This document shows positions 38,235-38,312 of a DNA stretch of 39,344 nt, piece after piece (positions within the stretch are counted from its first letter, which is position 1; every line of letters starts with the position of its first letter). Both the position numbers and the translations under genes were made by a program. Below the pieces are notes generated by a model, which was given only the letters and a program-made list of their open reading frames with translations, did no database searches and had not been told where the DNA came from. Source of the DNA: a virus (taxonomy: Duplodnaviria; Heunggongvirae; Uroviricota; Caudoviricetes); IMG/VR virus record IMGVR_UViG_645058835_000004, positions 1-39,344 of that record; one strand, given 5' to 3'.

Positions 38235-38265
38235 TGTATGTAACCTCAAGCATCATACATTGACA

Positions 38266-38281
38266 CTGGTTATATATACAG
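38266..38281. promoter_or_regulatory. LexA-box-like dyad / promoter-like sequence upstream of int (weak)
   Basis: CTGG-N8-ACAG (one mismatch to CTGT-N8-ACAG) with AT spacer, overlapping a TTGACA hexamer at 38260-38265. Confidence 0.25.
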
Positions 38282-38312
38282 TAAGAATGCTCTCCACTGG
38301 AGGGCATTTTTT

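Follow-up and report, generated by a model that had tools for sequence, protein, structure and literature searches.

We describe a compact regulatory cassette directly upstream of the integrase gene (int) of a phage 186-type prophage. The stretch of about 79 bp that separates int from the last cargo gene contains a dyad of the type recognized by the 186 activator CII, a predicted sigma-70 promoter whose spacer is filled by a candidate LexA operator, and a leader hairpin. Judging from how these parts are arranged and conserved, we consider it likely that the cassette is an autonomous int promoter under LexA repression and CII activation, shielded from transcription that arrives from upstream. 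A broader reading, which we hold to be about evenly balanced, is that, through this portable cassette of ~80 bp, the expression of int depends jointly on LexA/SOS, a signal from the host, and CII, a signal from the phage, with a promoter-embedded hairpin that only transcripts from its own promoter would skip. Such autonomy would let int sit behind arbitrary cargo, including defence genes, or even behind ogr at the far side of the genome. In contrast to 186, 186-like phages would then commonly have two promoters activated by CII and two direct targets of LexA. The parts are of known kinds, in an arrangement for which no description was found in the literature. Likewise, for P2/186-like phages no paper was found that reports control of an int promoter by LexA or CII; papers on P2 defence hotspots mention cI-int or int-primase hotspots, not int regulation.

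The window, i.e., the whole 39,344-nt stretch of DNA that was analysed, is a 186-type (Peduoviridae) prophage. By record comparison, its right end is 100% identical to an E. coli A37 prophage adjoining rcdA. Coordinates were taken from the window sequence alone, because the annotated A37 record differs away from the int end. The coordinates of that record (NZ_CP029327.1) are offset by 247 nt from those of the window, and its GpA-GpQ hotspot has other content (window about 25460-28300 vs NZ_CP029327.1 1726481-1729737). The hotspot contains an annotated retron St85-family reverse transcriptase in A37, whereas in the window it contains a 525-aa ORF with a weak TPR match and a 181-aa ORF. On the minus strand of the window lie fil, cII and an apl/cox-like gene; the plus strand then continues with cI, three cargo genes, a 78-nt gap and int. 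The genes of importance here are as follows.

34221-34730, minus strand: cII, encoding the presumed activator at both dyads, 69% identical to 186 CII over all 169 aa
35073/35130-36029, plus strand: cI, from the window layout
36030-38234, plus strand: cargo between cI and int, three genes (PADLOC and Pfam)
38313-39344, plus strand: int, a P2/186-family tyrosine integrase of 343 aa (Pfam Int_N and Phage_integrase; "phage integrase" in matching records)

The CI repressor of the window is 299-318 aa long, as opposed to 192 aa in 186, and Pfam places two Phage_CI_repr helix-turn-helix stretches N-terminal to its CI C-terminal domain. The first cargo protein (260 aa), encoded upstream of PDC-M11A, has a weak Pfam match to DUF3644. 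PDC-M11A (36815-37885; PADLOC E 2e-130) and PDC-M11B (37851-38234; PADLOC E 5e-48; ASCH domain by Pfam) form a candidate defence pair. The regulatory features discussed below are these.

28772-28791, no strand assigned: second LexA box, of a p95-type SOS operon, with a heterology index (HI) of 4.6, preceding, on the minus strand, a 62-aa ORF and a DinI-like (Tum-type) gene
34704-34730, no strand assigned: the window's own pE CII-type site, ATGTTTG-N13-CAAACAT, overlapping the cII start and positioned as in 186
38234-38260, no strand assigned: CII-type dyad ATGTATG-N13-CATACAT, with half-sites at 38234-38240 and 38254-38260, 20 bp centre to centre
38260-38265, plus strand: -35 hexamer TTGACA (promoter scan), its TTGA nearly invariant in a 26-sequence alignment
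38264-38283, no strand assigned: candidate LexA box CACTGGTTATATATACAGTA, filling the promoter spacer at about -31 to -12 and having the best HI in the window
38283-38288, plus strand: -10 hexamer AAGAAT (promoter scan and direct reading), which is AAAAAT or TAAATT in relatives with its register kept
38285-38309, plus strand: leader hairpin (-15.0 kcal/mol, z -5.3), its core at 38289-38295 paired with 38299-38305 around the loop ACT
38295, plus strand: predicted int transcription start (about +/-2 nt), from 186 CII spacing, 7 nt past the -10 hexamer
38307-38312, plus strand: T6 run after the hairpin, read from the sequence and ending 1 nt before the int ATG

A preliminary description of the sequence at 38260-38288 (ttgacaCTGGttatatatACAGtaagaat) had reported a LexA-box-like dyad one core position away from the SOS consensus and overlapping a TTGACA -35 hexamer, and both points are borne out. 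The 20-mer at 38264-38283 agrees with the literature consensus, TACTG(TA)5CAGTA (PMC6590174), at 17/20 positions. Its core, CTGG-N8-ACAG at 38266-38281, has the CTG-N10-CAG pattern and matches CTGT-N8-ACAG at 7/8 positions, with CTGG in place of CTGT. The 20-mer shares 2 nt with the -35 hexamer, which the 16-mer core adjoins directly, and the box fills the 17-nt spacer between TTGACA and AAGAAT, 30 nt upstream of int. Sites were scored with the Berg-von Hippel HI, using a matrix built from 24 E. coli LexA sites, and all values are approximate. On this approximate scale the int box has an HI of 3.7, the best in the 39-kb window, followed by the 28772-28791 box at 4.6 and the next site at 12.3. 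The value of 3.7 falls inside the equally approximate range of the 24 training sites (2.3-12.1), and published functional LexA sites cluster at low HI. Boxes of this quality are rare: sites with an HI of 5 or less were found in 0 of 200 Markov-random 39-kb sequences of window or AT-rich composition, and the pattern CTGK-N8-ACAG occurs at only two places in the window (38266-38281 and 28774-28789).

The 28772-28791 box is the counterpart of the 186 p95-tum arrangement, and thus the phage is of the SOS-inducible type. The operon behind it comprises the 62-aa ORF (28545-28730), which has no Pfam match, and the DinI-like gene (28301-28531; Pfam DinI). The same box overlaps a weak second box at 28757-28776 (HI 13.4) in the minus-strand promoter, and we take the overlapping pair, at 28757-28791, to resemble the tandem boxes of colicin promoters.

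The promoter itself, TTGACA-17-AAGAAT at 38260-38288, was a 10/12 match in the promoter scan. The region from 35000 to 38312 has a G+C content of 34%, and the number of promoter-like sites found in the AT-rich region (20, vs 15.6 in shuffles) is not above expectation; promoter likeness alone is therefore weak evidence. The candidate box occupies the spacer of a predicted promoter with a predicted start site.

The dyad at 38234-38260 abuts the -35 hexamer, and its first base coincides with the stop codon of the upstream cargo gene. The CII protein of 186 is reported to recognize inverted half-sites that are spaced by two helical turns and have their centres at -58 and -38 relative to pE (PMC6593788), and the CII site annotated at pE in phage 186 reads ATGTTTG-N13-CAAACAT. 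The pattern ATGTWTG-N13-CAWACAT has exactly two perfect matches in the window, at 34704-34730 and 38234-38260, and none in 100 shuffles. The geometry is identical at the two sites, the -10 hexamer lying 23-28 nt past the right half-site in each case (CAAAAT, at 34753-34758, for pE of the window and AAGAAT before int), and the register at the int site also agrees with that of 186 pE. Counting 38 nt from the right half-site centre at 38257 predicts an int start at 38295. The cognate cII gene is carried by the window itself (34221-34730). In 186, the CII-dependent promoter has a poor -35 and negligible activity without CII; the int promoter differs from it in having the consensus -35 TTGACA. CII may add little here, because the -35 of the int promoter is consensus, unlike that of pE. 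In sequence, the int promoter resembles one of the pE type in which a consensus -35 has been acquired, along with a LexA operator spanning the spacer.

The leader hairpin has a G+C-rich core of 7 bp with an A and the T6 run behind it, and the Shine-Dalgarno sequence GGAGG (38299-38303) lies within its 3' arm. Hairpin and T6 run together resemble an intrinsic terminator. The terminator scan did not list them, probably due to its extending the stem into the T run, and an Rfam search of 38100-38450 returned no match. Relatives have at least eight unrelated stem sequences at the hairpin position, most with z below -3 and with the ribosome-binding site in the 3' arm; these were folded sequence by sequence, as the stems are too divergent for alignment-based covariation. 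The T run is kept in the Escherichia and Klebsiella group and missing from the Serratia, Yersinia and Rahnella versions. As judged from these predicted folds, what is conserved in the hairpin is that it occludes the ribosome-binding site, and some lineages have termination in addition. In nearly all relatives the 5' arm ends at the predicted start, or else the start lies in the loop; in the window, about 38295 is the end of the 5' arm. Folding of the RNA from 38295 onward gave no significant structure over the ribosome-binding site.

Beyond the window, 157 loci encoding Int relatives were fetched from genomes and viral contigs, and the 150 nt upstream of each start were scored. Among them, 68 distinct upstream sequences have a LexA-type box (HI 2.1-10.5) whose start lies 47-54 nt ahead of the int ATG; these related sequences share ancestry and do not count as independent events. 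They come from more than 20 enterobacterial genera, and Int identity among them ranges from 100% to 54%. The hosts include Escherichia, Klebsiella, Raoultella, Citrobacter, Kluyvera, Serratia and Yersinia, as well as Pectobacterium, Brenneria, Rahnella, Ewingella, Pantoea, Mixta and Winslowiella. The invariant columns of a 26-sequence alignment are the TG and CAGT of the box, the ACAT-T of the right CII half-site and the ATG. The interior and flanks of the box drift in that alignment, and the half-site cores are kept. As read from the alignments, this footprint, in which positions outside the presumed contacts turn over, fits a LexA operator and not a promoter spacer. The dyad has at most two mismatches in 65/68 upstreams and at most one in 55/68. 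Its heptamers in relatives read ATGT(A/T)TG and CA(A/T)ACAT with 12-13 unconserved nt between them, the spacer being 12 nt long in most relatives vs 13 nt at pE and in the window. Half-sites at the pE position of relatives likewise vary between A and T at their position 5. Dyad, box and hairpin always co-occur among the 68 upstreams, and the gap between dyad and box is fixed at 3-4 nt. Homology between the window and isolated phages (Klebsiella 4LV2017 and KP12; Escherichia 813R9) starts at 38234, within the stop codon of the last cargo gene, which implies that the travelling unit is the upstream 79 bp plus int.

These comparisons change the standing of what had been proposed for the site. An AT-rich promoter with fortuitous dyad symmetry had been offered as equally likely, a view that the comparative evidence rejects: the fixed distance to the int ATG, the invariant half-sites and the variable interior across Int lineages show that the box is not fortuitous. 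The suggestion that int is under SOS or independent control gains from the fixed position and from half-sites invariant down to 54% Int identity; it was incomplete, in that the adjacent CII-type dyad and the hairpin had been missed. Since a site of the 186-CII type lies directly upstream in the same cassette, control is probably dual, by CII and LexA.

The cassette follows cI at a distance of 0.4-2.8 kb, filled with varied sequence; it also comes immediately after ogr, on the same strand and far from cI (Rahnella- and Pantoea-type prophages, Int 54-58%), and immediately after cI with no cargo in Escherichia phage ESSI2_ev129. In the latter (L166 3417-3503), a perfect 186-type dyad, ATGTTTG-N13-CAAACAT, is followed by TTGACA and the box CACTGTATAAATAAACAGTA; its hairpin differs and has no T run. 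The cassette is missing where int is translationally coupled to or overlaps cI, as in 186, and also in K139/kappa and phiO18P, where cargo abuts int. Three Brenneria/Budvicia prophages (L041, L044 and L048) have int 560-925 nt after cI with neither a LexA box nor a CII dyad upstream, and hence there is at least one other solution for expressing int apart from cI. Of 5426 complete E. coli genomes, 1133 have a match to the int region and at least 685 a match to the 106-bp promoter stretch, and the group of relatives also includes isolated Klebsiella and Escherichia phages. A further dyad, ATGTATG-N13-CATACAA, lies about 39-65 nt upstream of ogr in Rahnella/Ewingella prophages (L035, L031, L032 and L030). 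It is conserved, with a variable spacer, and hints at a possible additional action of CII at, or against, the late activator ogr in these prophages.

Could the int promoter be repressed by LexA alone, with the ATGTATG/CATACAT dyad serving as the site of another protein, as a UP-like AT-rich element or as a stem in the RNA, forming a weak hairpin where the cargo transcript ends? A consensus -35 needs no activator, the dyad spacer of most relatives is 12 nt rather than the 13 nt of pE, the dyad region does fold weakly as RNA (-9.2 kcal/mol, z -2.6), and the 186 literature has one CII-activated promoter only (PMC7708051). We nevertheless regard this reading as unlikely. In its heptamers the dyad agrees with the 186 CII site and with the window's own pE, the -10 register is as at pE, the half-sites are kept despite complete turnover of the 12-13 nt that separate them, and a 7-bp A/U-rich stem with a loop of 12-13 nt makes no credible terminator. 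It is more doubtful still that the promoter depends on CII only, with the palindrome kept for the needs of the spacer and -10 or for some other dyad-binding protein and no control by LexA. The A/T-rich interior of the box does overlap -10-like TATA strings, but promoter spacers are normally free of sequence constraint, and here CTG and CAG are fixed exactly 10 nt apart around an A/T-rich variable interior, which is the profile of the LexA motif. On the approximate 24-site matrix, the HI of the box is also on a par with that of proven operators, and a second box of equal quality stands upstream of the DinI-like (Tum-type) gene in this phage of SOS-inducible type.

Least probable of all, and in our opinion very improbable, is chance dyad symmetry in an AT-rich intergenic region, with Int produced solely by read-through from pL/pE. 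Promoter-like matches are indeed common at 34% G+C (35000-38312). Against this, none of the 200 AT-rich random sequences had a site of such quality, and both position and half-sites are kept across more than 20 genera. A stable hairpin and T run directly before the ATG speak against simple read-through, and the cassette also precedes copies of int placed after ogr, far from pL. Other identities for the region were rejected. It is not attP or a set of Int arm sites, as attL/attP lies downstream of int in related phages and the 186 arm consensus, YAYCGCCAYTY, is unmatched. It is not a CI operator: 186 CI sites are of the ATTCAC...GTGAAT type, and the pR/pL switch of the window and the region upstream of int have no 8-mer in common. 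Two short ORFs that cover the site, one on the minus strand (38137-38307) and one on the plus strand (38260-38496), are mechanical ORFs in a regulatory region; the conservation pattern is that of DNA sites.

Returning to an int promoter under both LexA and CII, we infer the following mode of action for the cassette, which would be a self-contained two-input promoter. LexA and CII would bind their respective sites, and the sigma-70 promoter TTGACA-17-AAGAAT would start RNA at about 38295. In an undamaged lysogen, host LexA on the spacer would hold int off, and CI would keep pR, and hence CII, off, such that little Int would be made. Transcription out of the cargo genes would enter the leader hairpin before int, and transcripts from pL/pE through cI and cargo would either terminate there or remain untranslatable. 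Transcripts from the cassette promoter would start at the end of the 5' arm, thus lacking the hairpin and having a free ribosome-binding site. Upon infection, CII expressed from pR would activate pE, for cI, together with the int promoter, as lambda CII does at pI; the scheme would amount to lambda pRE/pI logic built from 186 parts. LexA on the spacer should also hinder or dampen CII-activated transcription during infection. Upon SOS induction, LexA cleavage would free int and release the DinI-like (Tum-type) operon at the same time. The ensuing loss of CI would supply Apl and CII, and Int and excisionase would rise together.

Phage 186 is the reference for the family, with int on the repressor operon, a single target for CII, and LexA acting via the antirepressor Tum only. 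If our proposal is correct, a large and common group of 186 relatives is wired otherwise, with an integrase that is silent in the lysogen and switched on directly both by infection and by DNA damage. A solution like that of lambda pI would have been made from 186 parts, and the varied cargo between cI and int, including defence genes, would be explained without deregulation of int. The cassette would also provide synthetic biology with a compact, natural two-input promoter that has a built-in insulator, and it would bear on the prediction of prophage excision following antibiotic-induced SOS.

Several known systems resemble the cassette in part. In integrons, a LexA box overlaps the promoter (Pint) of the tyrosine recombinase gene intI and ties recombination to SOS (PMC3108266), and a LexA box over the promoter of a tyrosine recombinase gene is what we propose for int of the window. 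The two differ in that intI belongs to an integron rather than a prophage, and has no phage activator site and no leader hairpin that has been described. The LexA-repressed p95 of 186, which drives the tum operon, is likewise a phage promoter overlapped by a host LexA operator, as predicted here; p95, however, governs an antirepressor, whereas the operator in the window would govern the integrase and is combined with an activator site. Lambda pI is alike in logic, since the lysogeny activator CII turns on int from a dedicated adjacent promoter apart from the repressor operon (PMC7708051). The proteins and sites are unrelated, lambda CII binding TTGC repeats, and a LexA operator is absent from pI; for excision, lambda expresses int from pL, under sib retroregulation, rather than by SOS derepression of pI. 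A further likeness is to pE of 186, reported as the single CII-activated promoter of that phage (PMC7708051). The 7-bp inverted half-sites (ATGTTTG/CAAACAT there, ATGTATG/CATACAT here) are 20 bp apart centre to centre in both, and the inferred -58/-38 position, the -10 register and the presence of a cognate CII in the same genome are likewise common to the two. In the 186 record the cI stop overlaps the int start, with int translationally coupled and expressed from pL/pE together with cI. There, pE drives cI with int behind it, and has negligible basal activity and no good -35, whereas the promoter described here would drive int alone, from a consensus -35 and with a LexA operator in its spacer.
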